A stretch of 64,000 nucleotides of DNA from a virus, in IMG/VR virus record IMGVR_UViG_3300017963_000225, positions 27,635 to 91,634 of that record; one strand, given 5' to 3'. Under the pieces are notes generated by a model. That model did not search any database. It was not told where the DNA came from and saw nothing but the letters and a program-made list of their open reading frames with translations. Of this stretch, positions 19,081-45,856 are shown piece by piece (the stretch's first letter is position 1; each line of letters starts with the position of its first letter). The position numbers were made by a program, and so were the translations under genes.

Positions 19081-19938
19081 TCACCTCTTGGCATGATGTT
19101 TTGTGTGGTGGAAGTGAGCAGCATCGGCATGATCGGCCGCCAGCTTGGCGAACGCCCCAACGTGCTTACCCTTGCGCGACAAATGCTCCATCAAACTCAA
19201 CACAGCACTTGCCCGTTTGTGGTGAGCGTGCATGGCGTCAGCATGATCCTCGCGGCTAAAGCCCTTGTGGTGCTCGGCGTGCTTGTGGCTGTGGCGGTGG
19301 ATTTTCTTGCCGCTCTTTGTCTTGCCGACGTGTTCACGCGCCTTCTTCAGCTTAGCGCCAACGGCCAGGCCGAAGTGGTGATTCATTGCCTCGCGATGAT
19401 GCGCGATGACATTTGGGTGCGTCTCGGAGCCAAGCTTGGAGATATGAGCAGCATGGGCGCGGTATGCGTCCATGTGGTCGTGGGTTGAAAAACCCACGTG
19501 AGCCGAGCTGGATGGGTGCGACATGATTCGCTTGCCCGAGCGTGTCTGCCCGAGCGCGTGCTCGCCCTGGCTTTTGCGAGGCCGCATGACGCTGGTGCCG
19601 AGAGCTTTTTTGAAGTGGTCGCCAGACATGATGTGAAACTGACGCTTGGCTTCTCTGTCTTGCGAGCTTTTGCTTGGCGACGACCCCAGCTTTATCCCAT
19701 GCTCGTTGATGTGAGCCTTTATGCCGTTATTATGCGATTCAATCCCGCCAAGATCGGCGTGACTCCTTGCATGCGGCATGTTCTTGCCGTGAAGCAAATG
19801 CAAGCCAGCGGCATCAGCATGATCTTCTTTTGAAAACCCGGAGTATTCCCCCGGAGATTTTGCGCTGTAAACGTCCTTGCCGCTCCTGGTTGTCCCAAGT
19901 TTTTTTCCTAGACTTGATTTGCGAAGGAAAAATTTCAC
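19081..19938 (-). CDS. His-rich three-repeat putative head-cargo polyprotein
   Basis: N-terminal MKFFLRKS tag; three [LV]GxT[RK]SGK...GFSxxDHxDAxxxH units. Confidence 0.7.
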   Translation of the reverse strand: MKFFLRKSSLGKKLGTTRSGKDVYSAKSPGEYSGFSKEDHADAAGLHLLHGKNMPHARSHADLGGIESHNNGIKAHINEHGIKLGSSPSKSSQDREAKRQFHIMSGDHFKKALGTSVMRPRKSQGEHALGQTRSGKRIMSHPSSSAHVGFSTHDHMDAYRAHAAHISKLGSETHPNVIAHHREAMNHHFGLAVGAKLKKAREHVGKTKSGKKIHRHSHKHAEHHKGFSREDHADAMHAHHKRASAVLSLMEHLSRKGKHVGAFAKLAADHADAAHFHHTKHHAKR

Positions 19939-27256: not shown

Positions 27257-28855
27257 TCAGGCTGGTCGATCAAGAAGAGGCTTCTTGATTTCGGTGCCGC
27301 CGACGTTGAGCCAAACCACGTTCACCCACGGACGCGGCACTTGCGGTGCCAGAACATGAGCGAACAGCTTGTTGGTATGCAGCCAACCAAGCTTGGCAAG
27401 GTCGAACTCGAAGAGGCCGGTGAGCTGGGCGAGCGCGACCGACGAGCGACCAACGGTGTACTCGTTGGTTGCCGAGGTCGGGACGCCGCCATCATCAATC
27501 GCTTGCGCGTTCGGCGAGTGGACATCAGATCCCCAAGCCCACGTCGTTCCCGGAATGTAGTCATCGCGATCGATGACGACGACCGGAGTCGTGTTGCCTG
27601 GAGCAATGCCGTTCGGGACCTCAAAAATGAAGACGGGATCGCGCAGGACCGGCTCCATAAAGGTGTCCGGCTGTGCAGGATCAGCAACGTATCCGCGATA
27701 GATGCGGAACGACTGCTCATCACCACGCGGGGTGATCGTGAACTCGATCGTCTTCCCTGCCTGCGCGTTGACGGCAGCGGACAGGTTGGAGGCGACCGAT
27801 TCGCCGACTTCATTGACGGCGGTCATGTAATAGACCATGCCGGTCAAGCGCTCGCCAGAAGAGGCGAACTTGCCGGTGCCGGCGACGTTGACGGCCGGTT
27901 GAGTGACCGAGCCGGCGCCAGCGCCGCCAAAGGTGAATGCCGACGGTGCGCCCGGAATGGCGACCGTGTTCGGACCGCCCGTCCGCACGAGAGACGACAG
28001 AGCGTTCTCACGGCGGAAATAGACGATGTTTCCGTTGACCTTCACGCCATCGACCGATTGGCCGATGATGAGGCCCTTGGTATTCGCCGCCGCAATGTTG
28101 CCCATCAGCGTGAAGCGCGCTGCGGGATCGAGGTTGGCCTCGATGTTCTCGGTCACTTCAGGAGCGCAATAGATGCGCTTCAGAACGCCGTGGCGCTTGT
28201 TGAAGGCGGTCGCCTGCGAGCGAATGCCCTTGGTGCCGTCCATCAGAAGCGGCTTGCCGCGCATGTCGATGAAAATGTCCGTGTTCGCAAATGGCACGGT
28301 GGCCAGCGGCGAGCGCGTCAATTCGTCGATGAGCTGCCAAACGCCTTTGAAGATGTTCGGGTCGGTCGAGAAGCGAGTGTCCGACTGGAAAAGCTCGACG
28401 TTGAGCTGGTACATCATGAGCAGGCGAACGACGAGATCGTTCGATGCCGCGATGTCCGGCTGTCCGAGCAGCTTCACCGTGTTTTGCAGCACGGTGAGGC
28501 CCTGGACGGCCGTCGTCTTGCCGTAGAGCTTGAGCTGGACTTGCTTCTTGGTTCCCTCGATGTTCGCCGAAGGCGGCAGCGAGTTTGGCGCGAACGCCAG
28601 CTTCGTCTTGTGGTTGCCGTAGCGATCAACCTGAGTGAACTCGTGGTTGACCTGCTGCGCTTGCTGCTTCGGAAGATCCTTGAGCAGCGTCATTTCTTGC
28701 CGGTCAGTCTCGGAATAAAGCTGGAGGTACGCTTCGTCCTCCAGGTCTTCCTTCATGAACGGCTGGATGCTGGTGCCGGTCGCCGAATCGACCGACAGTG
28801 CTTTACGCACGAGGTCGAGAATCTGCGCGTCGGCCATGTTTGAAGAATTCAACAT
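27257..28855 (-). CDS. Major capsid protein (532 aa; probably cleaved at K18/A19)
   Basis: Start reassigned to ATG 28855 (AGGAGG SD). 'RKAL...EDLE...LLKDLPK...VNHEF...YG' is SPO1/Twort-like; follows protease and scaffold. Confidence 0.92.
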   Translation of the reverse strand: MLNSSNMADAQILDLVRKALSVDSATGTSIQPFMKEDLEDEAYLQLYSETDRQEMTLLKDLPKQQAQQVNHEFTQVDRYGNHKTKLAFAPNSLPPSANIEGTKKQVQLKLYGKTTAVQGLTVLQNTVKLLGQPDIAASNDLVVRLLMMYQLNVELFQSDTRFSTDPNIFKGVWQLIDELTRSPLATVPFANTDIFIDMRGKPLLMDGTKGIRSQATAFNKRHGVLKRIYCAPEVTENIEANLDPAARFTLMGNIAAANTKGLIIGQSVDGVKVNGNIVYFRRENALSSLVRTGGPNTVAIPGAPSAFTFGGAGAGSVTQPAVNVAGTGKFASSGERLTGMVYYMTAVNEVGESVASNLSAAVNAQAGKTIEFTITPRGDEQSFRIYRGYVADPAQPDTFMEPVLRDPVFIFEVPNGIAPGNTTPVVVIDRDDYIPGTTWAWGSDVHSPNAQAIDDGGVPTSATNEYTVGRSSVALAQLTGLFEFDLAKLGWLHTNKLFAHVLAPQVPRPWVNVVWLNVGGTEIKKPLLDRPA

Positions 28856-28869
28856 CGTAACCTTCCTCC

Positions 28870-29811
28870 TTACGCCATGGCTTTCGCGAGGACCGTTGCG
28901 TCGCCAGCACGGCCACGCTTCCACTCCTCGTGAGTGATTTTTCCTTCTGCCTTCGCCTTCATGAGTGCATTGCGCTGATCGCCAGTCACAATGCGCCCGA
29001 GTGCATCAGGCTGAGCAGAAACCTGGACTTGATCTTGCGACACCGCAGCGATTGCGGGCGCCATGCCGGCAACCTTCGGCATGCCAGGAAGTTGAGAAAT
29101 CGACTTCATCAGAGAGGTGTGCTCTCCGAGCGACTTCTCAAGGCGGTTTTGCTTCTCGATGACCGCCGTCAGCCCCTTTTGCAGGGAAATCAGCAGACGA
29201 TCGCGACGAGGATCGGCCAGCTCCGCGAGCAGCTCGCCGAAGGTGGCAACGCCAGAACGAAGCTCTCTGACGGACTTGCCGAGGTATTCCACGGCATCGC
29301 CCATGCCTTCGAGGAATTCGGTGGCATCGACGCCACCTTCGTCCGCATCGTCGTCATCGACGACCTGCTCGCTTTTCTTCATCTTCTTCTTGCCCTTGGA
29401 CTTGCCACGGCTGAAGAAGGCCGGCATGCCATCATCATCATCATCGTCGTCGTCGTCATCGGCGTCATCGTCGCCCTTATTGACGATTTTCGAGGAGTCC
29501 TGATAGCCCTGTCCCGACTTCTTCGGGCTCTTGGCCGGGTCGTCCTCGGTGGCAATCACCTGGGAGCCGCTTCGTCCTTTGGCATCCAAGGTGTTGTCAC
29601 TGCGCGGAGCGCCGTTGGCCTTGAAAAGAGCGCCGAGGCCCTCTTTCACGCCATCAACGATCGACTTGCGGATCAGGTCGGGAGTGACTTGCGCTCCAGC
29701 CTGATTTGCGTCCTGGCCGCCTTCGCCGCCAGTGTCACCTGCGGACTGATCCGCCGCAACTGCGGCGTCCATGTCCCGAATGGCTTTTTCAAGCAGATCC
29801 TCGTGGTCCAT
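28870..29811 (-). CDS. Capsid scaffolding protein
   Basis: Acidic, poly-Asp, coiled-coil; about 10 hydrophobic-x-K-[ASG] sites; between protease and capsid. Confidence 0.8.
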   Translation of the reverse strand: MDHEDLLEKAIRDMDAAVAADQSAGDTGGEGGQDANQAGAQVTPDLIRKSIVDGVKEGLGALFKANGAPRSDNTLDAKGRSGSQVIATEDDPAKSPKKSGQGYQDSSKIVNKGDDDADDDDDDDDDDGMPAFFSRGKSKGKKKMKKSEQVVDDDDADEGGVDATEFLEGMGDAVEYLGKSVRELRSGVATFGELLAELADPRRDRLLISLQKGLTAVIEKQNRLEKSLGEHTSLMKSISQLPGMPKVAGMAPAIAAVSQDQVQVSAQPDALGRIVTGDQRNALMKAKAEGKITHEEWKRGRAGDATVLAKAMA

Positions 29812-29844: not shown

Positions 29845-30573
29845 TCAGCCAAACTTGGAAGCGAGGTAATTTTGTACCCGCAACCGAGCTTGGTCATGAT
29901 TGTCTCCGTACTTACTCATCGCGTGCTCGACAAGCCCGTCCTCAAGGCTTGTCGATGTCACCGAAGCGAGTGGCGAGAAGGCTTTCTCGTAAAACTCATC
30001 GCGACAAAGAACTGGCATCTGTTTCATGAGGGATTTGGCGAGAACTGACACGGTGCAATTTGGATTTACGGGCCGGAAGGTAAGAGCGATGTTGTAAACG
30101 ACGGCCTTTTGAACGTAGCGCCCGCATGGACTACGCTCCATGACCTTTCCCTCGATGGACTGACACAATCCGCGATTCGTCCCTGCTTTTCTGAGCTGGG
30201 TGTGCTGCTGAATCACCATGTCTGTCGAGTAGCCTTCCCAGATCGGGAGGCCCTTGATGATTCGGCCTTCACTAAACCACTTGCCATCCTGAAACCAAGC
30301 CTTCTTTCCCCACGGAACACCAACGGTGGCGTGTGGAATATGGTTCCAGTTGAAATCGCCGTGCTCCATAAACGGCGAGAAGTCCAACCCCTTCTGGAGT
30401 ATGACCTCTTTGTCCCGGTCTTTGTCTGGCGTCGAAGCAATACCCGTAAACGGATAGTATTTCGTGTCGCCTTGCTTTTGTTCGGACTTCAACATGAGCC
30501 CGTCGGGACAGAACGCAATGAAGGTCCCGTCACTCCTAACGTAAAGCCCATTGTCTTCGCCAACGTCGAACAT
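29845..30573 (-). CDS. Prohead protease
   Basis: 'GIASTPDKDRDKEVILQKGLDFS...FNWNH...SIEG...IALTFRPVNPN' (HK97-like protease His and Ser motifs). Confidence 0.92.
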   Translation of the reverse strand: MFDVGEDNGLYVRSDGTFIAFCPDGLMLKSEQKQGDTKYYPFTGIASTPDKDRDKEVILQKGLDFSPFMEHGDFNWNHIPHATVGVPWGKKAWFQDGKWFSEGRIIKGLPIWEGYSTDMVIQQHTQLRKAGTNRGLCQSIEGKVMERSPCGRYVQKAVVYNIALTFRPVNPNCTVSVLAKSLMKQMPVLCRDEFYEKAFSPLASVTSTSLEDGLVEHAMSKYGDNHDQARLRVQNYLASKFG

Positions 30574-30750: not shown

Positions 30751-30987
30751 TCAAGCCCCGTGATATCGCGCAAGCATCTCGAAGTTTTTTTTGATTTGCT
30801 TTAATCGACTGTTTTGAAGCCACGAGGGCTGGTTAAGCGTCCCGCCTTCAGAGAAATACTGGTTCCAACTCTCCAGAGTGATGTCGGCCACGCTCATCGG
30901 CCCCCGGTAGCCGACACTGATGGATTTGAGCAGTGAGCTTGGTGTGGGAAACTTGATCTTGAAGCGCATAGACAAGGCCCTCCTCAT
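30751..30987 (-). CDS. Small putative cargo protein
   Basis: ATGA-coupled; 'MRFKIK...LLKS'. Confidence 0.55.
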   Translation of the reverse strand: MRRALSMRFKIKFPTPSSLLKSISVGYRGPMSVADITLESWNQYFSEGGTLNQPSWLQNSRLKQIKKNFEMLARYHGA

Positions 30988-31799
30988 TCGTCGTAGTCGA
31001 TGGACGGTGGCTTTTTGTGAACGCGCATAGCATTTCGCATGTAGGACTCGACGCCAGCCATGTTGACCTCGCCATCGTTTTTAAGCGCCATGCGCCGCAC
31101 GCAATAGTCAAACCACTTGGGGTGGTCACGGAAAAACGGCCGCGTGTGAGCCATCGATAGAGCTTTCCTGAGCGGCACCGTTGCGCCCTGCTTCTGCTCC
31201 ATCATGGTGCGGAATGCCTGATTGAAGCGGTCTAGCGCCTCATGCTCCATGCCGGACGGGCCGTGCTCATAAGCCTTCTCAATGATCGCTCGGCAAAGGC
31301 CCTTAAAGCCAGTGCGCGGCACTTCATGCAACCTCTCGACATTGCCGAGGATTTTGCGACAAGCGTAAAGCAGGTGAGCGATGGGTTTTTTGGCGCGGCG
31401 AAACTGCTCGCCCACCCAAGCATCGCGATCGGTTTGCGACAGCCCCTTCGTCTCATTCCTGAGACGAGCCGCCCAAACCTCTCCAGCCTCGTGTTCCTTC
31501 TTGACCTTCTCCCACTTGCCCTTGCCGCGCTTGATATAAGTGCCGTCGGCGCGCTTTCTGACCGTGCCGACCGGCAGCGCCCTGGCCTTCTCGATCAGGT
31601 CGAGCTTCGAGTAGTAGTCAGGGTCCTCGGCAAGATGGTCCATGGCGATTTCGCGCGCCAACGCCCGATCCTTCGTGTGCTCCAGCTCGTGCTTGGTCCC
31701 TCGCGCAAGCTGGCCAGCGTCAAAGTCGCTCGGCTTACGCTTGTCGGCCTTGCCGCCTGGCAGGCGATCTTTATAGCCGGCCTTGAGTAAAAACCGCAT
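30984..31799 (-). CDS. Putative head-cargo protein (DUF5661-like domain plus PVGT module)
   Basis: MRFLLKA tag; 'GTKHELEHT...AREIAMDHLAEDPDYYSKL'; then 'IEKARALPVGTVRKRADGTYIK..GKW'. Confidence 0.75.
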   Translation of the reverse strand: MRFLLKAGYKDRLPGGKADKRKPSDFDAGQLARGTKHELEHTKDRALAREIAMDHLAEDPDYYSKLDLIEKARALPVGTVRKRADGTYIKRGKGKWEKVKKEHEAGEVWAARLRNETKGLSQTDRDAWVGEQFRRAKKPIAHLLYACRKILGNVERLHEVPRTGFKGLCRAIIEKAYEHGPSGMEHEALDRFNQAFRTMMEQKQGATVPLRKALSMAHTRPFFRDHPKWFDYCVRRMALKNDGEVNMAGVESYMRNAMRVHKKPPSIDYDE

Positions 31800-34700
31800 T
31801 CAGTCCTCCTCGTCCAGGCCGAGCGCCTTCTTGAGTTTTTTTCCGCCAACCGCTGTCTCAATAAAGACAAGCTCGTCCATTGCGCGAGTGTAGGCGACGT
31901 ACATAAGATTCTTCTCTTGCACTATCTCCCACGGCTTCTTTGCCATGCTAGACGGCATCAGGTGGTGGTTGAGGATAAACACACGCGGCGCCTCAAGCCC
32001 CTTGGCCTTATGCACCGAGGACAGGCGCAAAATGCTATCGCGTTTCTTGCCTTCGTCATCCTTGAACATCGATTCGATTTCACGCACGAGCCCGTCAACG
32101 TCCTTGGCCTGACTTTCCGCCATGAACACCGAAAGGGTTTCAAACTTGTCCTCAATCGCCGTTGTGTCGGCGTCGGGATCTTTGAGTTTGAGCTTGTTGA
32201 TTTCCCGCTTACTCCACTCGACCAGCTTACCTCCGAGGTCGTCGAGGCTCTTTGGCTTGAGCTTCTTAATGAGTGAGGTCATGCCCAAACCGATGTCACG
32301 CCCCATCACCTTGCACGGCACGCGCTCGCGCAGCAGCTTGTAGGCCATGCTGACCAGCGGCGCGTTGTTGCGGCAGACAATCATATCGGTCTGCTTGAAG
32401 TCCTCGATCTTGAACTTGGTGCCGAGGTCTTTGATCTCGCCTGGCTGAGCATCGGGACGCGGCTTGATGCCTGGAACGATTGTCTGAGCCAGCTCGATGA
32501 TTTTCTTGCCGCAGCGGTAGGAAATCGGCAGCTCGAACACCTTAGCGTTGAACTGCTTGCGGATCAGGTCGAGGCTCTCGGGGTTGGCACCACGGAAGCC
32601 GTAAATGGCCTGATGCGGGTCGCCGACCGCCACGACGCGCGTTTTGGTGTCGGTCGAACGCCGGATCGCCTCGCGCTGAATGTCGGACACGTCCTGCGCC
32701 TCGTCAACGAACAGAAAGTCGTACTTGGCCCAAGGCGTGTTGTAGATGATCGGCATATAGAACTGGTCGTCGAAGTCGATCACGTCCTTTTGCATAATGG
32801 ACTTCTCAAGCGCCAGGCGCGACAGGCGGATAGCATGCTCGACCGTCTGCGGGTAGTCGATTTCAATCGAGAAGTGCTCGATGAGATTTTCCCACTGCTC
32901 CCTGGTGTCGGGCACGAGCCCCTTGATGCCGTGTGCGGCAAGCGAGGCTGGCGCCAGGCCCATCTGCTTGGCCTTGGATACCATGCTTTTCACCGTCCCG
33001 AAGTATGTCTTGTCCTCGGGACCTTGCAGCATGTCGCGTAGGATAGCGCTGGTCTTGGTGCCCTTCTCGACCTTGACCCGGTTGTAGCCGCCCATGAAAC
33101 GCGCCCATGAGGCAAAGCCAAGCGCGTTGAGTGTCCGCACCGCCTTCTGATCGACAGCCCACTGCGGGACACGGCCGAGCAGCTCGTCGCGAGCCGAGGT
33201 GTTGAAGGCCAGGAAGATGATCGACTTGTCGCGTGGGATAACGTCGAGCGCCCGCACGATCGTGGCCGTCTTACCAGATCCGGCCTTAGCATCAATCATC
33301 GCGTTGCCGCTGCCCTTCTCGATCCAATCGAAAATCGCCTGCTGATATGGCGACGGCTTGAACGGTTTTTTTGGCTCATGTCCCGGAGCGTCTTTGGGCT
33401 CAGGATCGACCGGAACCTTGGGCTCGGGTTCTTGAGATGGCGGCGGCAAAACAACGGCGGGTTGCATGGTGGGAGCCTCCTGCTTAGGCGGCTCCTTCTT
33501 CGGAGCCGGTGGTTTTTCTGCGGGTTGTTTTACCGTGCCGGCCTCCTGTTGTCTACGCTTGGCCTTGGCCTTCAAAGCTTGCGTAACGAGGTCGTCAGGT
33601 TGTTTCTTCTTATCAAGCCTCTTGTCATCCCAAGCGACAGCTTCCTCGAACGTGACCTCGCGGCCGGCTTGTTTCATAAGCTTGGCCAGGTGACGCTTGG
33701 CCATCGCGATATTTTGCTGCTCCTCGCGCGGCGACGCCTCGCCGTCTCGTGACGTGCGCTCGGGCTCCAGCTCCAGGTGAGCGTGCCAAATTTTCTCCAT
33801 CAGCTCATCGCTGATCTCTTCCTTCTTTGACTTAGCCTTTTTTGGCTCAGCCTTCTTCTTCGGCTCGGGCTTGGCGGTGGCCTCGACGCGCTTCTTACCC
33901 TGCTCGTGCAGCAGGTCGTGGTAGCGCATCACCGTTTCATGGATCTTGCCGGCGGTCTTTTCCCAGCCGCTGTTCTTCCAGTCGTCGTCGCCGAACATTT
34001 CCGAAAAATACTCATGGTGATCGTCGGGGGAGGTCGAGTGCGGGTGAATGTCTTTCTTGTGAAGGTGATTGGCCCAATGCTTGACACCGGCTGTGAACTC
34101 TTTCTTGATCGCAGCGTAGTCCTTGCGTTTCTTGTAGCCACCGGCCTCAAGCGTCTTCTCGGCAAGGCGCGGCAGGTGCTCTTTCTGCCACTTGTGGTCG
34201 TCCACCTTGACGTAGGTGCCGTCTGCCCACTTGCGGCGGGTGCCGACCGGCGCCTTCCTGGCCTTGAAGAAAAACCGCACGAGCCCGCCTCGCGGCTCGA
34301 TAGCTGGCGGATCGACAAGCTTGATGCCGATCCGTGCGACGACAGCCTTCCTGATCTTGTCGTGCTTCAAAATGTACTCCATCAGCTCCGCGATGCGTTC
34401 TTTGTACTTCCAATCGGGAGCGTCCGCGTGTTTGGGGTCGTCCTTGGTGTAATAAAGCGCATGCGGCACGAAGTTGTCGATGTAGCTCTTGTCGATCTTG
34501 CCAGCGGCAATCAACTCCTCGGCCTTCACCAAGCCATACACCTCAAAGGCTCGCGCAAATACCTCGGTCGGCTTGTTCAAGTAAGCACTGAACGACTGTC
34601 CCATCATTTTGCCTTTGTGCGACCACTGGTAGTAGGGCGTCGAGCGCACTAGCTCCAGCATCTCTTTGTACTTGGCCTTCAGCTCAGGATCGCTGGCAAT

Positions 34701-36716
34701 GGCGGCCGAGCGCGGCGTGCTGTCAGTTCCCTCGTGCATGGCATAGTCGATGGCGTGTCCAAGCTCATGGATCATCGACTTGGAGTCGCTCGTGAAGTCG
34801 TGGATCTCCACCGACAGCTTGCCATGCCAGTAGGTGGCAGCCGCACGGGAGGCGCGCTTGCCCAGCCGGGCGTTCACCCGGAAGTGCAGCGGCCGGATGA
34901 AACGCACCCCCATGTGATCCATGATGATGTTGGTCTGCTTAATCATTTGCAGGATGCGGAAGCGCTGATCCTTGTTCGTCTTGGCCAGATCAACGCTACG
35001 GATCATGTTGGTGCGCGCCTGCACGGCGTCGTTGACCTCGGGCGGTATTTCGCCCGACAGCAGCGGGTAGTCCTTCTTGGTGCCCTCTCCCAGCTCGTAG
35101 CCGGCCTGGTGCGCGGAGTAGGCCAGCGCTTGGTGGCGCAGCGCGTACTCCTTCTTGAGCCGCAACATCGCCTTGCGGCGGCGCTCATGCTCCTGCAAGG
35201 ATGCGCCGCTTTCCGCCTGATCGCGCTCGAAGTGATCTCCGGCGCTCCTGGGCTGATCGTCGAGCCCGAAGGCGGCACGCACGTACCACTGATCCTTCTC
35301 GATGTGACGGATGACCGCCAGCATCTCGTCCACCCATTTTTTCTTGGGCATCAGGTGGGCGTTTACTTCGAGCTGGTTGTGCTTCAGCCACCACTTCTTG
35401 GCTTCCTTCGCCTCGGCCTCACTGCCGAACGAGCCGACCGTGTTTTTGCGGTCCCTGCCGATCGAAACCAAGTCGAAAATGCCAGGACGATCCTCGCCGC
35501 CGAGGCCGACGCCGCTATGGATTTCATACGTGCGCTCGCGCTCGGCCATGCCACCTCGCTTGAGGCCCTTGGCCCTCTTGTGGCCCTCGTGCTTCAAAAA
35601 CCCGTAATAGTTTTTGACGATGGTATGCACGGTGTCGGCGGTCTTCTGCCAGCCGCTCTTATGCCACTCGGGGTCGTCGAACACCTCGGCCCAATGCTCA
35701 TGGTGCTCATTTGGCTTGGTGTGCTCTGGGTGCTGGTCGTTGGCGTGCAGGTAGTCGGCCCAATCGGATGCTGCCCGCACAACTTCCTTTTGGATCTCTT
35801 TGAAATCCTCGCGCTTGGCGTGACCGTGGTCCTTGAGCGCCTTCACCGCTAGTTTCTTTACCGTCTCGCGATGCCAGTTGTGGTCATCGACCTTGACGTA
35901 AACCCCATCAGCCCAGGTGTGGCGCGTGCCGACCGGAACTTTCTTTGCTTTGAAGAGGAAGCGCACCGAGGCTTCTCCTTTCTTGAGGCTGCCTCGATGC
36001 TCCAGCTCGGCCTTGAGCGAAGCAAGCATAGCCTCGTGTGACTTAATGGCAAATTCGCTTTGCATGCCCTCGATCTTGGTGATCCGCTCCTTAATCGCCT
36101 GCTCGTCGAGGTGAGCATACTTGCGGCCGACGCCGCGCACGTCGAACAGCGTGCCGATCTCGATCTCAAAGTCTTCCTGGGCGTGCTTCTTGCCGTTGAG
36201 CGACTTGTCGTTGTATTTGCGGAAGCCGCCCATGTCGAGCAGCTTGAGGTTTCCATCGCCGTCGCGGGCAAATTGCAGCTTGTCCCACGGGTAATAGCCC
36301 TCCTTGCGGAAGATGCGCCACAGCTCGTCGCGCACCGCCTCGGGCTCGCCGCGCTTGAGGTCGCTCATTTCGATCGGCTTCAGGTGCTCACGCGCCAGAA
36401 ACAGCTTCTTGCCCTTGCGCCACGTCGCGTAGTGCTTCGGAATGAGCGAGCTGCCGGCAAGATCCTTGAGCGCGTTGTGCTCCAGCATGAGGTCGTCGCG
36501 GGCACCCTTGGGCGTTTTCTTCGGAGCGTGACGCGCCTGGAAAGGCGCCTGCTTGGACACCTTGACGGCCACGTCGCCGATCGGCTCGACCTTGGCGTGA
36601 AAGACATGCCCTTGATGGCCATGGCCGATGTACTTCCATTTGCCGTTGGCGATCTTCTGCCAGTCGCCATGCACAGTGCCGATCGGCACGGCCTTAGCTT
36701 TCAACAGAAACATCAT
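31800..36716 (-). CDS. Large polyvalent protein: kinase-like, zincin/LPD1-like and UvrD-like SF1 helicase domains
   Basis: Kinase: GHGHQGHV, VAVK, LLDMG. Peptidase: HELGHAIDY, YLNKPTEVFARAFE. Helicase: AKAGSGKT, VDEAQD, VGDPHQAIYGFRGA, SVHKAKGLE, YVAYTRA. Confidence 0.88.
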   Translation of the reverse strand: MMFLLKAKAVPIGTVHGDWQKIANGKWKYIGHGHQGHVFHAKVEPIGDVAVKVSKQAPFQARHAPKKTPKGARDDLMLEHNALKDLAGSSLIPKHYATWRKGKKLFLAREHLKPIEMSDLKRGEPEAVRDELWRIFRKEGYYPWDKLQFARDGDGNLKLLDMGGFRKYNDKSLNGKKHAQEDFEIEIGTLFDVRGVGRKYAHLDEQAIKERITKIEGMQSEFAIKSHEAMLASLKAELEHRGSLKKGEASVRFLFKAKKVPVGTRHTWADGVYVKVDDHNWHRETVKKLAVKALKDHGHAKREDFKEIQKEVVRAASDWADYLHANDQHPEHTKPNEHHEHWAEVFDDPEWHKSGWQKTADTVHTIVKNYYGFLKHEGHKRAKGLKRGGMAERERTYEIHSGVGLGGEDRPGIFDLVSIGRDRKNTVGSFGSEAEAKEAKKWWLKHNQLEVNAHLMPKKKWVDEMLAVIRHIEKDQWYVRAAFGLDDQPRSAGDHFERDQAESGASLQEHERRRKAMLRLKKEYALRHQALAYSAHQAGYELGEGTKKDYPLLSGEIPPEVNDAVQARTNMIRSVDLAKTNKDQRFRILQMIKQTNIIMDHMGVRFIRPLHFRVNARLGKRASRAAATYWHGKLSVEIHDFTSDSKSMIHELGHAIDYAMHEGTDSTPRSAAIASDPELKAKYKEMLELVRSTPYYQWSHKGKMMGQSFSAYLNKPTEVFARAFEVYGLVKAEELIAAGKIDKSYIDNFVPHALYYTKDDPKHADAPDWKYKERIAELMEYILKHDKIRKAVVARIGIKLVDPPAIEPRGGLVRFFFKARKAPVGTRRKWADGTYVKVDDHKWQKEHLPRLAEKTLEAGGYKKRKDYAAIKKEFTAGVKHWANHLHKKDIHPHSTSPDDHHEYFSEMFGDDDWKNSGWEKTAGKIHETVMRYHDLLHEQGKKRVEATAKPEPKKKAEPKKAKSKKEEISDELMEKIWHAHLELEPERTSRDGEASPREEQQNIAMAKRHLAKLMKQAGREVTFEEAVAWDDKRLDKKKQPDDLVTQALKAKAKRRQQEAGTVKQPAEKPPAPKKEPPKQEAPTMQPAVVLPPPSQEPEPKVPVDPEPKDAPGHEPKKPFKPSPYQQAIFDWIEKGSGNAMIDAKAGSGKTATIVRALDVIPRDKSIIFLAFNTSARDELLGRVPQWAVDQKAVRTLNALGFASWARFMGGYNRVKVEKGTKTSAILRDMLQGPEDKTYFGTVKSMVSKAKQMGLAPASLAAHGIKGLVPDTREQWENLIEHFSIEIDYPQTVEHAIRLSRLALEKSIMQKDVIDFDDQFYMPIIYNTPWAKYDFLFVDEAQDVSDIQREAIRRSTDTKTRVVAVGDPHQAIYGFRGANPESLDLIRKQFNAKVFELPISYRCGKKIIELAQTIVPGIKPRPDAQPGEIKDLGTKFKIEDFKQTDMIVCRNNAPLVSMAYKLLRERVPCKVMGRDIGLGMTSLIKKLKPKSLDDLGGKLVEWSKREINKLKLKDPDADTTAIEDKFETLSVFMAESQAKDVDGLVREIESMFKDDEGKKRDSILRLSSVHKAKGLEAPRVFILNHHLMPSSMAKKPWEIVQEKNLMYVAYTRAMDELVFIETAVGGKKLKKALGLDEED

Positions 36717-36973
36717 GACTCTTCGCTTTCATAATCCTGGAAAACCATCCTGCTTCCCTTCAGGTGATAAATTTTCCCGTCTTTATGAATGTAAATTTTT
36801 CCGCCAACATCCAAGGTCGCCGAAGGATGATCGCCGCCAACCATCCAGCGACCGCCCTCCTTGTGCGCGGTCGTCTCCGTCGATGTCCCATCTTTCCAGT
36901 AAATTTTCGCTCGATGCTTCCGAGGCTGCTTGTCTTTTGCGCCCTTCGTCCTCGACTTGAAAAAAAACTTCAT
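36713..36973 (-). CDS. Small basic putative cargo protein
   Basis: MKFFFKS tag then 'RTKGAKDKQPRKHR'; coupled overlaps on both sides. Confidence 0.7.
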   Translation of the reverse strand: MKFFFKSRTKGAKDKQPRKHRAKIYWKDGTSTETTAHKEGGRWMVGGDHPSATLDVGGKIYIHKDGKIYHLKGSRMVFQDYESEES

Positions 36974-38013: not shown

Positions 38014-41000
38014 TCACTCCTCATCGCCTTCGATATGATGGCGAACGCCATTATACCCGCGCTGGTTTTCCTGGAACATCGCCGCCGCTGAAAGAAGCAC
38101 CTTCTTTGTCTTGGCGCTTGCCTTCTCGCCTAGCTTTTTCTCAAGAGCCGGCCAGAAACTGTCGGCCTCCTTCGGATTTGCCACGTCGCCGTCGCCTAGG
38201 TGGTCGAGCTGGCGCGAGCCAAGGTGCTTCACCATGTCCTTCAGGTGCTCGCCCATGTGCTTTTTGATCTTGGCGTCGGACTTGATGCCGTGCGTGTTGA
38301 GGGCCGCCTCGACAGCCGACTCGTGGTCTTGGTCCTTGTGCGGAGTATGCGCCTTCCCTGAAGCCCAGCGATCCACCGTGTCGCGCATCGCCTTCTTGGT
38401 GCCATCTGTGAGCTTCTCTTTGTGCTTCTTCTCGTACTCGTTGACATACGAGCTGAAGAGAGCGTCAGTCACCTTCTTGCCCTTGCCCTTCGCTGCCTCG
38501 TGACGCGAAGCAAGCTCGACAATGTGCGGCATGATGCTTCCTTCGATGCCACGATCAAAAAGCAGGTGGTGGTCCTTCTTTCCACGCGAGCGCAAGTGAT
38601 CGCGAAAGTGCCCAAGCAGGCCGTCTTTCTCAGAGTCCTCAACCGTGCCGCTGCCGACGACACCGCCAGCATACTGCTGATAGCCGGGCTGGCCGTGCAT
38701 GGCCTGCGCCTGCTCGCCACCGATCGGCGCGGCCGTCGATCGCTTGTACTGCGGATCGCCGTCCTCGCCGGTGTACTTCTTCGCGTATGCCTTCCCTTCC
38801 TCGTGCTGGAACTGAAGGATCTTCTGCCCCAGCTCGTGGTACTTCGGAAGGATTTCAGACTTGCGCATTCCCCTGATGTTTTCGAGGTTAAGCGTGATCG
38901 CCGTCTCGGTGTCGGTGTCGTCCATGTCCGAAACGATCATCATGTTCGTGTGAAGCTTCGCCATGAGGCGCACGTACTTCGTCACGTCCATCGTGTCGTC
39001 AACAAGGCCCAAGTGAATGTTGACGGGCTTGTCTTGGCCGAAACGCCAGATTCGCGCGTAAGACTGCTCCTGCGTGCCAGGCGAGTAGTGGTGATCGTAA
39101 CGGTACATGCCGTTGGCGATTTGCAGGTTGACGCCCTCCGTGACCGACTGATCGACGGCGACGATGATCTGCGGTCCCTTGGGGTCGTTCTGGAAGTCCT
39201 CAAGCTCCTTCTTGTGCGAGGCGTCGTAGTAAATCGCCTTGCTTTTCAGGTGCTCTGGCATGTGGTCGAGAACGTGCTGGGCGCTCATGCGGCGCTGGCA
39301 AAACACAATAAACTTGCCGTTCTTGGGGTCCTTGAAGTGCTCGTCGAGCTTCGCATAGAGGTCGGTCGCCTTGGGGCTGACCTTGCCCTTCAAGGCGCGG
39401 ATCGCCTTGCGCGTGTCGGGTGACAGCTTCGACAGAAGGTCGATCGCCTCCTGCTTCTCGGCCTCAAGCTCGGCCGCCGCGTCCCCTCTTAGCTCTGCCT
39501 TGATCGCCCGCGCAGCGGCACGAGTCCCGCCGAGGGTGGATATCGCTTTCTCGACCGTCTCGGCCAGTGTGTCGGGATGGTCCGTGATGCCCATAAGCAC
39601 GTTGAATTTGCTCATGAACGCCGGCTTCGCATCGCCTTCGCTGGGAAGGAAGTCCTCGCTCTCGTCCCCGACACCGCTCTCCTCCAAAATCTGGGAGATC
39701 ACGTCGTCGAGCGCCGTCTCGTACACGCCCTGCGTCGTCGCGTCGTGCTTGACTACGGACATATGCTCGTTGCGCTGCGGCAGCTTGTCGATCCATGCCG
39801 AGCGCCGGATGCTCACAAGCCCCATGCGCTGCAAATCTTCGCGCAGCTTCTTCAGGCCGTCGCGGGACCACTTCACCGACTTCGGCCCGCGCCCCTTGCC
39901 CTTGTTGCCCTTGCCGCCGCCTACCACCGCCCCGAAAGCCGCGTTGCCTTCCAAGCCCTTCGCGGCGCCGCCCTCGTGCCCATAGGCTTCCTTGAACTGC
40001 TTTTCGGTCCAGTTGACGTAGGGGTGCAGAAACTTGAGCTGGCCGATGGCATCGAGCGGGTTGTTGGAGATGAACGTGCCAGACGCCACGCGCTTGTACT
40101 TGATGCCGCTAAGGTGCTGCACCGCCTTGAATCGTGACGTTTCCGTCGTCTTGATCCGGTGCGACTCGTCGAGGGCAACGTAGTCGAAACCCGAGGCGCT
40201 CAGGCGCTTGGCGTTGGCGTAGTCGTCGGAGCCCTTGGGCTTGTAGGAGACAAAATCGTAGCCGGCCATGAAGATGGTGTTGGGTGGAGCCTCGTCCATC
40301 GCCTGCATCATGGCTTCCAGATCGCCCTTGAAGTCATCCTTGAGCGTCTTGGCGCTCATTTTGAACACGTTGACGCGACCCTCGGTGTACTTCTCGGCCG
40401 TCAGCTTGGCGTTCTGGTCGAGCGTGTTGGTCGGCACGACGATCAGCGGCTTCTTGATCTTGCCTTTCGCCATGAGGTTGAGGGCATCGGCCGGCAGGAT
40501 GAGCCCCTTGCCGCCGCCCATGTCCACGTCCACCATGGCGTTGGTCAGGCCGTCGAGCTTGGCGAGCGTCTCGGCTTGGTGCCCGAAAAACTTGATCGAC
40601 GACGAAAGAGCTGGGATATGCGGGCAGTCCTTAGGGCCAAGGTGTGCGACCTTTCCAGCCTCGTCAAAAATCCTCTTCACGTCCTCGATGGCGTGCTCGG
40701 AGTGCTCGCCCATCAGCTTGCCGAGCGCCTGCTCGTGCGTCCCGCGCATCTCTGGATCGGACGCCACATCGTCAAAGAAATCACGCAGCACCGGGTCCTT
40801 GTGCGTGTACGCCTGGGCATACGTCGTCACGTCGCCGTGTGTGTCGTTCAGGTGCTTGGCAATCTTAGACACATGGTTTTTGTATATCCAGAAATCGGCT
40901 CCCAACTCGTTACGAAACCTTGGCGTCGGCGATTCTTTCTCCGCTTCGAGAATCTCGTCGAGGAAGGCGTCGTAGTCTTTGATGCCCTTGGAGCGCTGCC

Positions 41001-41331
41001 AAATTTCCCGCGCGTGCTCGTCGGGCCGGTAAACGCCGTTCAAAAACCGCGACTTCTCATCGTGGTTCATTTCGCCTTTGTGCTTGAACACGTCAGGCGC
41101 AACGGCCTTGCCCTTTGTCCTCAACGACTGCCATCTCTTCGGCATCACCGTCGTCGATTTGTCGTCGGAGTGAATCACCTTGCCGGCGAACGTGCCTGGG
41201 TCCTTCTTCGCCTGATCGCGCTTGTCCTGGTGCTGGTCGATGTAAACCAGGCTGCCGTTGGGAAGATGGCGGTAGTGCGCCTTGACGGCGCGCGACTTGA
41301 TGAGCGCATTAGGTCCGAAATAAAGCCTCAT
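38014..41331 (-). CDS. SNF2-family helicase/ATPase, putative head cargo
   Basis: DMGGGKG, LIVVP, LDESH, SGTFISN, EGVNLQ, QSYARIWRFGQ; N-term 'LIKSRAVKAHYR..NG..VY...H'. Confidence 0.88.
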   Translation of the reverse strand: MRLYFGPNALIKSRAVKAHYRHLPNGSLVYIDQHQDKRDQAKKDPGTFAGKVIHSDDKSTTVMPKRWQSLRTKGKAVAPDVFKHKGEMNHDEKSRFLNGVYRPDEHAREIWQRSKGIKDYDAFLDEILEAEKESPTPRFRNELGADFWIYKNHVSKIAKHLNDTHGDVTTYAQAYTHKDPVLRDFFDDVASDPEMRGTHEQALGKLMGEHSEHAIEDVKRIFDEAGKVAHLGPKDCPHIPALSSSIKFFGHQAETLAKLDGLTNAMVDVDMGGGKGLILPADALNLMAKGKIKKPLIVVPTNTLDQNAKLTAEKYTEGRVNVFKMSAKTLKDDFKGDLEAMMQAMDEAPPNTIFMAGYDFVSYKPKGSDDYANAKRLSASGFDYVALDESHRIKTTETSRFKAVQHLSGIKYKRVASGTFISNNPLDAIGQLKFLHPYVNWTEKQFKEAYGHEGGAAKGLEGNAAFGAVVGGGKGNKGKGRGPKSVKWSRDGLKKLREDLQRMGLVSIRRSAWIDKLPQRNEHMSVVKHDATTQGVYETALDDVISQILEESGVGDESEDFLPSEGDAKPAFMSKFNVLMGITDHPDTLAETVEKAISTLGGTRAAARAIKAELRGDAAAELEAEKQEAIDLLSKLSPDTRKAIRALKGKVSPKATDLYAKLDEHFKDPKNGKFIVFCQRRMSAQHVLDHMPEHLKSKAIYYDASHKKELEDFQNDPKGPQIIVAVDQSVTEGVNLQIANGMYRYDHHYSPGTQEQSYARIWRFGQDKPVNIHLGLVDDTMDVTKYVRLMAKLHTNMMIVSDMDDTDTETAITLNLENIRGMRKSEILPKYHELGQKILQFQHEEGKAYAKKYTGEDGDPQYKRSTAAPIGGEQAQAMHGQPGYQQYAGGVVGSGTVEDSEKDGLLGHFRDHLRSRGKKDHHLLFDRGIEGSIMPHIVELASRHEAAKGKGKKVTDALFSSYVNEYEKKHKEKLTDGTKKAMRDTVDRWASGKAHTPHKDQDHESAVEAALNTHGIKSDAKIKKHMGEHLKDMVKHLGSRQLDHLGDGDVANPKEADSFWPALEKKLGEKASAKTKKVLLSAAAMFQENQRGYNGVRHHIEGDEE

Positions 41332-42016: not shown

Positions 42017-42330
42017 GCCGTCTCCTCCGAGATGCGCTTCACGTCCATCGCTACTGGCCCCTCGTGGTTTTTGCCGACGTAAAACTCCACCGCGTCCCCT
42101 TCGGCAAGCGACTTGAAGCCACGTTGAACAATAAATTTGAAATGCACGAAGAGGTCTTTGCCATTCAGCGCGCGCTGAAGCTCCAGGTCGTCGGGCTTGA
42201 TATATCCGAAGCCGCGCTGCGCGTTAAACCACTGGACGCGGCCTTTAAGCCTTCTTCTTGCGTTGAAGTGAGGCAATTCTCTGGACGAACTCGTCGTCTG
42301 ACTCATCTCTGCGCTGCGGTCCCCGTGCAT
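42013..42330 (-). CDS. Cold-shock domain protein
   Basis: 'GRVQWFNAQRGFGYI', 'DLFVHF', 'GFKSLAEGDAVEF'. Start uncertain; ATG 42330 has a GAGGAAG SD inside the portal gene. Confidence 0.85.
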   Translation of the reverse strand: MHGDRSAEMSQTTSSSRELPHFNARRRLKGRVQWFNAQRGFGYIKPDDLELQRALNGKDLFVHFKFIVQRGFKSLAEGDAVEFYVGKNHEGPVAMDVKRISEETA

Positions 42331-44071
42331 TTGATTCTTCCTCGTCGTCCTGTTGCCCATCATCATCGCCGCCGCCGCCGTCGCCGCCGTCATCGTTGCC
42401 CTCATCGCCGCCTTGAGCTTGACCCTGAGCGCCTGGCTGAGCTGCTTGCGCCTGCATTTGTTGTTTCTGCATTTCCATCTGTTGCTTAGCCTGGAGCGCT
42501 TGCGCGACGATCGGATTGGAAACCACGTCGCCACCCTGCTCGGGCGGCAACGGATCAAGCCCCTGCTCCTGGCGCATCTCATTGACGGTCACAAATGTTG
42601 CCTTGGCCGTCGTGATTTGGATCGACTCCATTTCATTCTGGCCATAGTCCCACTCCATCGTCAGATCAGGATGGATGCGCTCAAGAATCGGGTCAAAAAC
42701 CGTCGTCTTGTAGTGCTGAAGACAACTTTCGAGCCCTTGCTCCTGGCTCATCTCGATTTGCGTAGCCTGAGACGCCTGATTCAGCGATCCCCGGTTGTCT
42801 CCAGCTCGCGGCGCCTCGTTAATTTCGCTTGGGTGCATGCGAAAAACAGCGCAAGCCAGGTTCGTCAATTTCTGGATGTAGACATCGAACAGCATGTCGC
42901 GATGATTTTGTCTGGTAGGAATAACACTGAGGTCATCCTTACCATTCGGCAGCGCAACGACCGGCAATCTAAACATTCCCGCGATGCCGCTCATGTTGGT
43001 CGCGAGGATGTTCGTAAAGTCGGTAATGTGTTTGTCGTTCCACTGACCGCGAATGCCGATGATTGTCTCGGCCATGTTGCCAAACTCAAAAAACCTTTGG
43101 TTGGCTGTCATGGCGAGAATTTCGGCAAGGATCGTGAAGATGGACCGCTCAAGCATCGAGCGTGGATAGCCAGCCTTCGTCACGTCCGTTGTCGGCATGG
43201 TCGGCGCGACGATAATTTCGTCGTGCCTGAATGCGGCTGTTGGCCGCCCTTGTAGAATGTAAATGTACTGCGTCTTCTCATCGACGCTGATCTGGTACTT
43301 GTCGGCAATCATACCTAGCGTTGACTTCCAAGCAGCATAGTTCGTCGCGAAGTCTTTCGGAAACTCGCGATTCACGGTGCTGATATATTTCACCGCCGCA
43401 AATGTCGGGATCACATTTGCACCATCAATCGCTCCGAACGCCCGAGGCGTGCGGTTTGGATCAAGCCCAAGCTCAATACATGGGCGATTGATTACCAGAA
43501 GATCCTCAGTAATTTTCTGAAGGAAGCCCGACATATTTGGCTCGATTTCGTCGTAAACGACGCCCTCGCTCCAATAAACCTTCCACGGCTTCATCAAAAA
43601 TTCTTCGACCTCTCGGCAGAAGACATTGAATTCTTCCGGGACCTTAAATTTAGAATCCGCATGACGTTTGTGGACAACCTTGAAGCCAACGTCGCCCTTC
43701 TTTGCGCCCTGCGAGCGCCGAGAAAAACGCTGCACTTGATGCAGGCGAGTGCTCACAATTGCACTAAGCAGCGGCGACCTCTCGCTAACTTGCCGAAGCG
43801 TGGCGAAGTTGAGCGTGCCTTTCTTCTGGCCAAGGTTGTTAGTGTAGCCCTTGGGATATCCGCCGAACATGGTGGCTGATCCAGTCATGTATTGTTCGGC
43901 TATCCGTGGCGCCTGCGGACCAAGACCAAAGGCAAGTAGCTTGATAACCTCATCAAGCGACGGCCCTTGTTGGCGAGACGGCGCCTGCTCCGTCTGCGGC
44001 ACTCCTGGAATCATTCCCGCCATGCCCATACCAATAGGTACTAACCCTTGATGATCGTCATTATCTGCCAT
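42245..44071 (-). CDS. Portal protein
   Basis: 608 aa after TerL; 'FLQKITEDLL', 'GYPRSMLE', 'RDMLF', 'CAVFRMHPSEIN', 'TVNEMR..GLDPL..GGD'. Confidence 0.92.
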   Translation of the reverse strand: MADNDDHQGLVPIGMGMAGMIPGVPQTEQAPSRQQGPSLDEVIKLLAFGLGPQAPRIAEQYMTGSATMFGGYPKGYTNNLGQKKGTLNFATLRQVSERSPLLSAIVSTRLHQVQRFSRRSQGAKKGDVGFKVVHKRHADSKFKVPEEFNVFCREVEEFLMKPWKVYWSEGVVYDEIEPNMSGFLQKITEDLLVINRPCIELGLDPNRTPRAFGAIDGANVIPTFAAVKYISTVNREFPKDFATNYAAWKSTLGMIADKYQISVDEKTQYIYILQGRPTAAFRHDEIIVAPTMPTTDVTKAGYPRSMLERSIFTILAEILAMTANQRFFEFGNMAETIIGIRGQWNDKHITDFTNILATNMSGIAGMFRLPVVALPNGKDDLSVIPTRQNHRDMLFDVYIQKLTNLACAVFRMHPSEINEAPRAGDNRGSLNQASQATQIEMSQEQGLESCLQHYKTTVFDPILERIHPDLTMEWDYGQNEMESIQITTAKATFVTVNEMRQEQGLDPLPPEQGGDVVSNPIVAQALQAKQQMEMQKQQMQAQAAQPGAQGQAQGGDEGNDDGGDGGGGDDDGQQDDEEESNARGPQRRDESDDEFVQRIASLQRKKKA

Positions 44072-44074
44072 GAT

Positions 44075-45856
44075 CTAGCCCTCAGTAGTCGCTTGTATTC
44101 TACCCTGTTCTTTCATTTGCTCCCACAACCGCCTGTAATGCTCGACTAATACCCGATCGGTCCCCGGCGGTATGAGCCGCATCAACTGATCGAGATTTTC
44201 CGGCATCGCTCCAGCGGAAGCGCCAGCCTTCACGCCATAAACACGAAATTCTCCACGTATTTTATATGCGAGTAAGCAATACACTTCAGCATGATAATAG
44301 TGGTCAGGATCGCCAAGATAGACATACCGTGGAGGATTGCTTTCTTGGTCCAAAATCCGCGTCGGTGTCTTGAGCATCTCGTAGTATTCCGAGCGGTCTA
44401 ACGACTGTGCGTTAGCTGGGAGTAGTAGGCGCTTTTGCACAAACCACGCCTGCACCAAGTCCATCAGCATGGTCCGGTCAGCACTCACCACGCCGTAGCG
44501 GCGATTGTCCTTCTCCTCCTCACTGCTCCTGATCTCATTTATACCTTGGTGATATCGACAAATGTAACCTCGCCCAGGATGTTTGCACGCATAATCAATC
44601 GATTTGCGTGTCTCAGGCATCGCGTCAATCACATAAGAAACAATGTTGAAACGGGCAAAAAGGAAATCAAGCTCCTCGAACTCTCGGACGGTGCCGGCAA
44701 AAACAAGCGGCAATTTCTCGCCTTCCTGCACGATTTTTCTGACGACAACGTGCAACCGCTTGCCAACGTCAACACCCATCACGCACGGCTCGCGCTCGTC
44801 GGTGGGCATCAGGTAAAAATCTTTGCAGGCGTTTAGAATGTCGTCGGTGAGCTTGGCTCCCTTGCCAGCGTAGGTCAAGCCGAGCATTGAGTTGTAAAAC
44901 ACCTGTAGCTTGGTGTCGTCCTCGACAGCGAGCTTGAACTTCTCCCACATTGTTTTTATTTCGACGTAGCTACTGAGCATCTGATGGATCAAGTAACCGT
45001 GCTTGTCTTTTATGTTTGGATGCTTTGCCACCCACCCTGATTTGTGAGTGAAGCGATTCAGCGGCTTGTCGCACTTGACGCACAGAACGAAAATGTCTCG
45101 ACCGCACCCGTCATGCCACGCGGCGTCCTTTAGACGGTAAAACCCATCATCTGTCTGATCGACCACGTTCTTAAACCAATCCATCACTTGCCAGAAGCCA
45201 CAGCTCGGGCACTTGACGAAGAACTCCATCATGTTGGTAAGGCGATAACTGGCATTGATGCCGTATTTATCGACCGTCGGGTTTGACGCCTCGCGCTTGA
45301 GCTTGAAGGGAGATGCCGTCATGCGGTCATCGGCCTTCTCGTAGTTCACGAGGTCAAATCGGTCAGTCTCGTCAGCGACGATCATGTCGAGCGGCTTCTC
45401 GATAAACGTCGTCGCCGAGTTTGAGCCAGCGTAAAAAATCGATCCCTTGCCAAAATGCTTCAGGCCACGGCTGTCCTGCGTTCTAGCGGCGCTGCGAAGC
45501 TGCATCTTGTAGTAGGGGACTTTCTCGATCACAGTATCGACGCGGTTGGCGACGAACTGGTTTCTTAGCTGCTCGGTCGGAATAACGTACATCACTTGCA
45601 ATCCGCGCTCGGCTCCCTCGAATGCGGTAATCATCAGGTATTCGGTCTTACCTGTCTGCACGCTCGATTGCATGACGACGACTTGCGCGCTGTCTTTGTA
45701 GATGGCGACAAGGTAGGGCTTGTCGTCGAAGCGCATGTTCTCGCCGCGAATGTTTCTGTGATGGAGGATGGCGTACTTTAATCGAGGATAGCGATTAAGT
45801 TCGTGGTCCAAGAGATAGAGGCGGGTCAGAAACTCCTGCTCAAGTGTCTCCCTCAT
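44075..45856 (-). CDS. Terminase large subunit (lambda GpA-like)
   Basis: Walker A 'SSVQTGKTE', Walker B 'IVADETD', 'SNPT', CxxC Zn-finger, nuclease 'MGVDVG', 'DHYYHA'. Confidence 0.93.
   Translation of the reverse strand: MRETLEQEFLTRLYLLDHELNRYPRLKYAILHHRNIRGENMRFDDKPYLVAIYKDSAQVVVMQSSVQTGKTEYLMITAFEGAERGLQVMYVIPTEQLRNQFVANRVDTVIEKVPYYKMQLRSAARTQDSRGLKHFGKGSIFYAGSNSATTFIEKPLDMIVADETDRFDLVNYEKADDRMTASPFKLKREASNPTVDKYGINASYRLTNMMEFFVKCPSCGFWQVMDWFKNVVDQTDDGFYRLKDAAWHDGCGRDIFVLCVKCDKPLNRFTHKSGWVAKHPNIKDKHGYLIHQMLSSYVEIKTMWEKFKLAVEDDTKLQVFYNSMLGLTYAGKGAKLTDDILNACKDFYLMPTDEREPCVMGVDVGKRLHVVVRKIVQEGEKLPLVFAGTVREFEELDFLFARFNIVSYVIDAMPETRKSIDYACKHPGRGYICRYHQGINEIRSSEEEKDNRRYGVVSADRTMLMDLVQAWFVQKRLLLPANAQSLDRSEYYEMLKTPTRILDQESNPPRYVYLGDPDHYYHAEVYCLLAYKIRGEFRVYGVKAGASAGAMPENLDQLMRLIPPGTDRVLVEHYRRLWEQMKEQGRIQATTEG

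Follow-up and report, generated by a model that had tools for sequence, protein, structure and literature searches.

An uninterrupted open reading frame (ORF) of 1638 codons in a virus genome, IMG/VR record IMGVR_UViG_3300017963_000225, encodes a predicted phage-type polyvalent protein, and we consider it likely that this ORF arose by in-frame fusion of three neighboring cargo genes, with internal GTG codons and Shine-Dalgarno (SD)-like motifs persisting as relics of former starts. The record is a complete 91.6-kb virus genome with direct terminal repeats, and the window analyzed here is the part of it that runs from position 27,635 to 91,634 (64,000 nucleotides); coordinates below are window positions, and every feature described lies on the minus strand. 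The ORF (31800..36716; protein P0001) would join a kinase-like module (amino acids [aa] 1 to 250), a zincin metallopeptidase module (aa 251 to 812), and a UvrD-like helicase module (aa 813 to 1638). GTG 35966 and GTG 34280, each with an SD-like motif, would mark where genes 2 and 3 once had their starts and ribosome-binding sites, which are now translated as Val and linker. Judged by sequence comparison, such a fusion appears well supported.

Leaders and start-type codons within the ORF

Two in-frame GTG codons, V251 (35964..35966) and V813 (34278..34280), each open a copy of a leader, x-R-F-[LF]-F-K-A, that also begins the ORF itself and four other genes. The original prediction had singled out both sites, and its description holds in the sequence: GTG 35966 opens VRFLFKA and is preceded at 8 nucleotides (nt) by AAAGGAG (35975..35981), while GTG 34280 opens VRFFFKA and is preceded at 7 nt by GAGG (34288..34291). 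The peptides at V251 and V813, VRFLFKAKKVPVGT and VRFFFKARKAPVGT, share the pattern V-R-F-[LF]-F-K-A-[KR]-K-x-P-V-G-T; the N terminus of the ORF reads MMFLLKAKAVPIGT, and neighboring genes begin with MRFLLKA (31799), MKFFFKS (36973), VKFFLRKS (19938, a GTG start), and MRLYFGP (41331). The resemblance that the prediction had drawn between the internal leaders and the N termini of neighbors is thus borne out. All five gene starts fit M/V-[RKM]-[FL]-[FLY]-h-[KRG]-[ASKP], a shared N-terminal signal of the kind that characterizes capsid-targeting leaders, and we regard the leader as a candidate capsid-targeting sequence.

When all six frames of the complete 91.6-kb genome were scanned with a loose pattern for the leader, 15 matches were returned, 7 in the frames of real genes and 8 in the background. 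An ATG or GTG opens all 7 of the gene-frame matches (five gene starts and the two internal sites) and none of the 8 background matches; therefore, chance does not account for the joint occurrence of leader and start-type codon. That the tagged gene at 19938 uses GTG as its true start fits the presence of GTG at the internal sites. The SD motifs at V251 and V813, taken alone, are not exceptional. ATG, GTG, or TTG accounts for 95 of the 1637 internal codons of the ORF, and among these the anti-SD duplex energies of AAAGGAG (−8.7 kcal/mol) and GAGG (−7.8 kcal/mol) rank 6th and 9th, with 9 of the 95 codons at or below −7.8 kcal/mol.

The position of the internal leaders relative to an adjoining hairpin motif, PxGT, points in the same direction as the scan. 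N-terminal hairpin copies carry Met 9 to 11 residues before the Pro of PxGT, the two internal copies of the 1638-aa ORF carry Val (GTG) at position −10 from that Pro, and V251 and V813 align with Met1 of N-terminal copies and stand-alone homologues. In the closest relatives, P0003 to P0006, which were compared at the protein level, the leader (MKFF[IV]RS) is found at the N terminus only, and internal copies read GLDV[IM]KAKK, IDMVKAKK, or WAFIFKAKK, without a leader. In the distant polyvalent proteins P0020 (with LPD1) and P0021 (with ART-PolyVal and topoisomerase IB), the internal hairpin has neither a leader nor M/V. Because relatives carry the leader N-terminally only and their internal copies lack it, a leader within an ORF would seem to be the trace of a former N terminus.

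A missed stop codon is an unlikely source of the long frame, since Logan contigs from two sequencing runs, possibly of the source sample, cover 31700..36800 with zero differences and an identical 1638-aa protein is on record from 3 contigs. None of the sequencing runs listed was an RNA run.

Domain organization of the 1638-aa protein

Module 1 (35967..36716) consists of the leader MMFLLKA, a short PxGT hairpin motif, and a protein-kinase-like domain, for which the fold model has a predicted local distance difference test score (pLDDT) of 64 and is matched by 329 PDB kinase chains at an E value of ≤1e-3. Modules 2 and 3 each begin with a head domain of ~130 aa (35570..35966 and 33887..34280), two paralogous copies that are 50% identical. 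The modeled domain has a disordered leader (residues 1 to 12), a beta-hairpin (residues 14 to 25; PVGTRHTWADGVYVKV in module 2), and a His-rich four-helix bundle (residues 31 to 127), with a pLDDT of ~90 for the bundle and 80 overall. No match to this head domain was found in Pfam, in the PDB (Foldseek or sequence search), or in the ESM Atlas, and its profile recovered just 13 representatives among 1.84 billion proteins.

The remainder of module 2 includes a zincin-like metallopeptidase core (34317..35039) with HELGH at aa 650 to 654, followed by PTEVFARAFE. The zincin motif is invariant in relatives; profile matches fall below the cutoff (ATLF, 0.0037; LPD1, 0.016; phrog_4415, 6e-4), LPD1 is matched in 4 of 8 family members (best, 0.001), and no PDB sequence match was found for the region. 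Shortly before junction 2 stands IRKA (aa 788 to 791; 34344..34355), which is likewise invariant in relatives and is, on the strength of its motif, a candidate head-protease site. In module 3, the head-domain copy is followed by a Lys/Pro-rich linker and a UvrD/PcrA-like superfamily 1 helicase core (aa 1115 to 1638; 31803..33374; Pfam UvrD-helicase, 1e-19; phrog_1967, 6e-100) that ends in LKKA and a 7-residue tail. A third in-frame candidate start, ATG (M1084; 33465..33467), has AGGAGG 8 nt upstream (33481..33476; −10.3 kcal/mol, rank 2 of 95) and lies ~30 aa before the helicase core, about where stand-alone helicases begin. Initiation there would give a 555-aa helicase-only product, and the Met at this position is not conserved in relatives.

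The protein thus combines at least two unrelated catalytic or effector domains (the kinase-like fold, the HELGH zincin motif, and the UvrD helicase) with a virion/late-gene location, between the portal and head-protease genes. With these features, and with zincin profile matches that stay below the cutoff, it would qualify as a polyvalent protein of the phage type.

Separate and differently joined modules in related phages

Relatives with the three modules as separate ORFs had been proposed as a check on the fusion idea, and split or differently fused homologues were found for every module. L053 (61 kb) and L054/L055 are IMG/VR contigs of clearly related phages; L053 and L054 share 72% identity with the virus described here in the capsid protein, 54 to 56% in the head protease, 41 to 44% in the SNF2 protein, and 38 to 39% in a 346-aa gene product. 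In L053, the site that corresponds to the giant ORF holds two separate genes whose stop and start overlap; they encode P0013, which starts MKFLFKAKKFPVGT, and P0008, which starts MIQILFKARKAPVGA and has a head domain and a zincin. The same position in L054 is occupied by the genes for P0014 and P0015, the latter starting MMFIYKAKAELVGT. P0003 to P0006 (53 to 57% identical in the alignment) begin at module 2, that is, at junction 1, so that module 1 lies outside their protein, and at their N terminus MKFF[IV]RS is followed by xLLxKAKKSPIGT.

The module 1 homologue P0022 (35% identical over aa 3 to 247; E value, 4e-46) ceases to be homologous at aa 247 of 250, beyond which it has a DUF5661-like stretch and a part homologous to the 78-aa gene that lies two genes downstream of the giant ORF. 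Six stand-alone zincin proteins (466 to 520 aa) have the head domain first and end 10 to 16 residues past a conserved [IV]KKA, and helicase cores like that of module 3 are mostly stand-alone proteins of 500 to 600 aa that begin at FKPSxYQQAIFDW. Taken together, these homologues indicate that every module occurs separately or with other partners.

Against a phage reference collection, megablast and tblastn gave no match to this phage; a scan of viral contigs returned nothing with a single protein and just an unrelated helicase with an alignment of the whole protein, and a metagenome scan returned solely helicase-core loci without the tag. The viral scan with the zincin family recovered the same two phages and a distant polyvalent locus (L058) without the motif. 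A helicase query had no match in the L053 and L054 records, which are just 66% and 48% complete.

In P0004 and P0006, the helicase is split just after its FVDE motif by an insertion of ~330 residues that has intein-splicing and endonuclease Pfam matches (PF14890, PF04480, and PF18741) and ends in HN followed by CQDVS. Seen in the proteins, this insertion has the hallmarks of an intein within a cargo helicase.

Proposed origin of the ORF and its candidate internal starts

We propose the following route. Each cargo gene of this lineage begins with a leader, M-[RK]-F-[FL]-h-K-[AS], and continues with a small beta-hairpin, PxGTxRxWxDGxYhK, and often with a His-rich four-helix bundle. Leader and hairpin would load the protein into the prohead, where the head protease would cut at h-[RK]-K-[AS], including the K-A that closes each leader. 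In the framework put forward for polyvalent proteins, enzymes are packaged into the head and reach the host together with the DNA, and a zincin or the head protease frees the units (PMC5512222). If cut in this way, a fused chain would mature into the very pieces that separate genes provide, which would make fusion nearly neutral and of low cost. The old SD motifs and GTG codons would then be left to decay slowly, with little or no protein started at them.

Stop loss is a plausible mechanism of fusion. From KIRKA to the GTG of junction 2 there are 21 residues, compared with a tail of 10 to 16 residues after KKA in stand-alone zincins, and the excess of 5 to 11 residues matches what read-through of a short SD-containing spacer would add. 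One-step stop-loss paths (GAA from TAA at aa 249 and CGA from TGA at aa 809) were dismissed as evidence, given that a single change suffices to link 18 of the 61 sense codons to a stop. In view of a protein identity of ~50% and many synonymous differences in the first 100 nt, the internal copies are unlikely to have undergone recent gene conversion with each other.

Several observations weigh against a fusion that left mere relics. Both SD motifs are about as strong as that of the median real start (−8.1 kcal/mol among 32 real starts). Met is found at position −9 in several internal copies (P0012, P0018, P0014, and P0019), above the expectation from Met frequency; fusions may have occurred repeatedly, or selection may have preserved a start that would otherwise have decayed. 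The five closest relatives also have a fused junction 2, yet it reads GLDV[IM]KAKKGTGAPIGT there, and the leader at junction 2 of the present ORF therefore needs an independent fusion or recombination event. Moreover, the direction of change, fusion here as opposed to fission in relatives, rests on parsimony and not on a rooted tree, and packaging, cleavage, and the absence of internal initiation are inferred.

It is quite possible, if short of probable, that the internal leader is kept as a head-protease cut site (h-h-K-A followed by K/R) that divides the chain in the prohead, with GTG and SD incidental to it. This explanation is compatible with an origin by fusion and differs solely in why the motif persists. 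It draws on the distribution of [ILVFM][RK]K[AS], a candidate head-protease site, of which 12 of 14 matches fall in head and cargo genes. In the capsid and scaffold region (27257..29811), it is present at aa 16 of the capsid protein (DLVRKALSVD; also in L053 and L054) and at aa 47 of the scaffold (DLIRKSIVDG). The giant ORF has it at aa 788 (KIRKA, just before junction 2) and at aa 1628, as an LKKA 7 residues from the C terminus that is invariant in relatives, and a 285-aa His-rich protein (19081..19938) has it three times. Leaders close with K-A or K-S, disorder is predicted for residues 1 to 12 of the head domain, and the leaders of T4 capsid-targeting sequences are removed by the prohead protease (PMC9024508). 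Against this, the match to a cut site is one of motif resemblance to the N-terminal regions of the capsid and scaffold proteins, most leaders have no [RK] at motif position −2, junction 2 of relatives does without a leader, and the motif is short and Lys-rich in proteins that are themselves Lys-rich. Of the two putative cleavage sites named in the original prediction, both are present, and IRKA fits the motif while LKKG (aa 244 to 247) does not.

Alternatively, the GTG codons might be working starts that yield a nested, co-terminal set with lengths of 1638, 1388, and 826 aa, to which ATG 33467 might add a protein of 555 aa. Each member of the set would carry a loading leader, so that the phage could set the copy numbers of kinase, peptidase, and helicase separately. 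At both junctions an in-frame start codon has an SD within 5 to 10 nt, with energies bracketing the median of real starts. Initiation at these codons would recreate exactly the N-terminal leader of five genes, and the excess of Met that internal copies elsewhere in the family show at the matching site would be in keeping with it. Phages offer familiar cases of genes nested in frame, such as T7 gene 4A/4B and lambda C/Nu3. Two-polypeptide endolysins provide another example (PMC9430671).

The local RNA speaks for a different outcome. Over 63 nt, mean folding energy is −13.3 kcal/mol at real starts in the window and −17.0 kcal/mol as the average of the ORF, compared with −15.3 kcal/mol at GTG 35966 and −21.4 kcal/mol at GTG 34280, and at neither internal GTG was an opened mRNA structure seen. 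GTG 35966 is paired in a 10-bp hairpin (35964..36000) that also covers part of its SD. The hairpin at junction 2 (34280..34299) has a 6-bp GC-rich stem, which takes in the first G of the GTG, and a loop that contains the SD. It is followed by TGCGGTTTTTC, a T-run that stems from Phe codons, and so resembles a terminator; a promoter/terminator scan overall gave results not above those of shuffles. These hairpins may be due to chance or may be leftovers of translational-coupling structures. GTG is also a weaker initiator than ATG, and SDs at least as strong as those of V251 and V813 precede 6 and 9, respectively, of the 95 in-frame start-type codons. Nor is the arrangement conserved at the protein level, contrary to what working starts would lead one to expect: junction 2 of the closest relatives has neither the leader nor a start residue, the homologous position in a fourth internal copy, that of the 271-aa gene at 30984..31799, is Leu (CTC/CTG) and no start codon, and the internal ATG of P0014 in L054 has no SD. 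We therefore regard internal initiation as unlikely. The original prediction had offered either three fused cargo genes or a nested set of isoforms; the former separateness of three tagged genes stands, given homologues for each module and the alignment with Met1, while the isoforms fare poorly against structured GTGs and SDs that are not unique. If the internal starts were live, this one gene would give three or four co-terminal proteins, gene fusion would be reversible at the level of translation and the cargo ratio tunable, and polyvalent proteins of this clade would routinely be nested gene sets.

That the multi-module chain is ancestral and gave rise to stand-alone genes by fission, with SD-like strings and Val codons occurring by coincidence in a Lys/Gly/Glu-rich linker, is highly improbable: internal hairpins without M or V in the distant P0020 and P0021 and the fused junction 2 of all five closest relatives agree with it, but stand-alone homologues all share the N-terminal leader consensus, which fission would need to create each time, the giant ORF has leaders where the internal copies of relatives do not, leaders in gene frames coincide with start codons as described above, and modules have differing partners across phages.

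Comparison with known systems and implications

Fusion of cargo genes places the 1638-aa protein beside the polyvalent proteins described by Iyer, Burroughs, Anand, de Souza, and Aravind in 2017 (PMC5512222). The likeness extends to several unrelated enzyme domains, a putative zincin hub, location among head genes, mosaic architectures that vary among relatives, and predicted processing into units. Unlike in that description, every module here is headed by the leader and hairpin, with a helical domain in modules 2 and 3 that lies outside Pfam, and the module borders still bear start codons and SDs, which leaves the history of fusion readable. No mention of module borders bearing start codons or SDs was found in the passages of PMC5512222 that were searched. 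What is new here is a head domain not described before and seams of fusion that can still be read.

N-terminal signals for capsid targeting are established in the internal proteins of T4 and in DarB of P1, a giant protein that includes a helicase and is encoded beside portal and protease genes (PMC9024508). The present system is similar in having a short N-terminal signal on large anti-defense enzymes carried in the head, with targeting here being predicted. It differs in that P1 Dar proteins have no shared consensus (PMC9024508), whereas one leader is common to five genes here and is also found inside an ORF. Nested genes such as T7 4A/4B, lambda C/Nu3, and those of two-polypeptide endolysins (PMC9430671) likewise have an in-frame start and SD in a longer ORF, and give co-terminal products. 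There, the short product has been demonstrated and the start is conserved, whereas the short products of the giant ORF are hypothetical, its start at junction 2 has no counterpart in the closest relatives, and its local RNA is structured.

How polyvalent mosaics form has so far mostly been inferred from domain architectures, and in this ORF the seams can be read. They suggest a concrete route, in which neighboring tagged cargo genes fuse in frame while related phages keep the modules separate or join them differently. Since every module retains signals of its own for loading and cutting, fusion would be tolerated. The head domain, comprising leader and hairpin with or without the helical bundle, could be tried as a capsid-loading tag. 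For annotation, internal "starts" of this kind should not be split into genes without evidence.

Gene neighborhood and other tagged genes

The minus-strand gene order is large terminase (44075..45856), portal (42245..44071), two small genes, SNF2-type helicase (38014..41331), a 346-aa gene, an 86-aa gene (36713..36973; leader MKFFFKS), and the 1638-aa ORF, followed by a 271-aa gene (30984..31799), a 78-aa gene (30751..30987), the head-maturation protease (29845..30573), a scaffold-like gene, and the major capsid protein.

The 271-aa cargo gene is a fusion in its own right, in which MRFLLKA and a DUF5661 part are followed by a hairpin copy, LDLIEKARALPVGTVRKRADGTYIK, and then by a P0013-like module. 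Its DUF5661 and P0013-like parts are separate genes in L053, and the DUF5661 part is joined to the counterpart of the 78-aa gene both in L053 and in P0022.

The 285-aa His-rich protein at 19081..19938, whose true start is GTG (leader VKFFLRKS), has three internal repeats; its gene lies 11 kb from the cargo block and adjoins other structural genes.

The SNF2-type helicase cargo gene (1105 aa) has the leader MRLYFG followed by a degenerate hairpin-like stretch, LIKSRAVKAHYRHLPNGSLVYIDQH, and both are kept in L053 (MKIIIRG...VKGHYRHLPNGHIVYIKEH). Since this helicase also has a leader and a hairpin-like stretch, two different helicases appear to be carried as head cargo by this phage.

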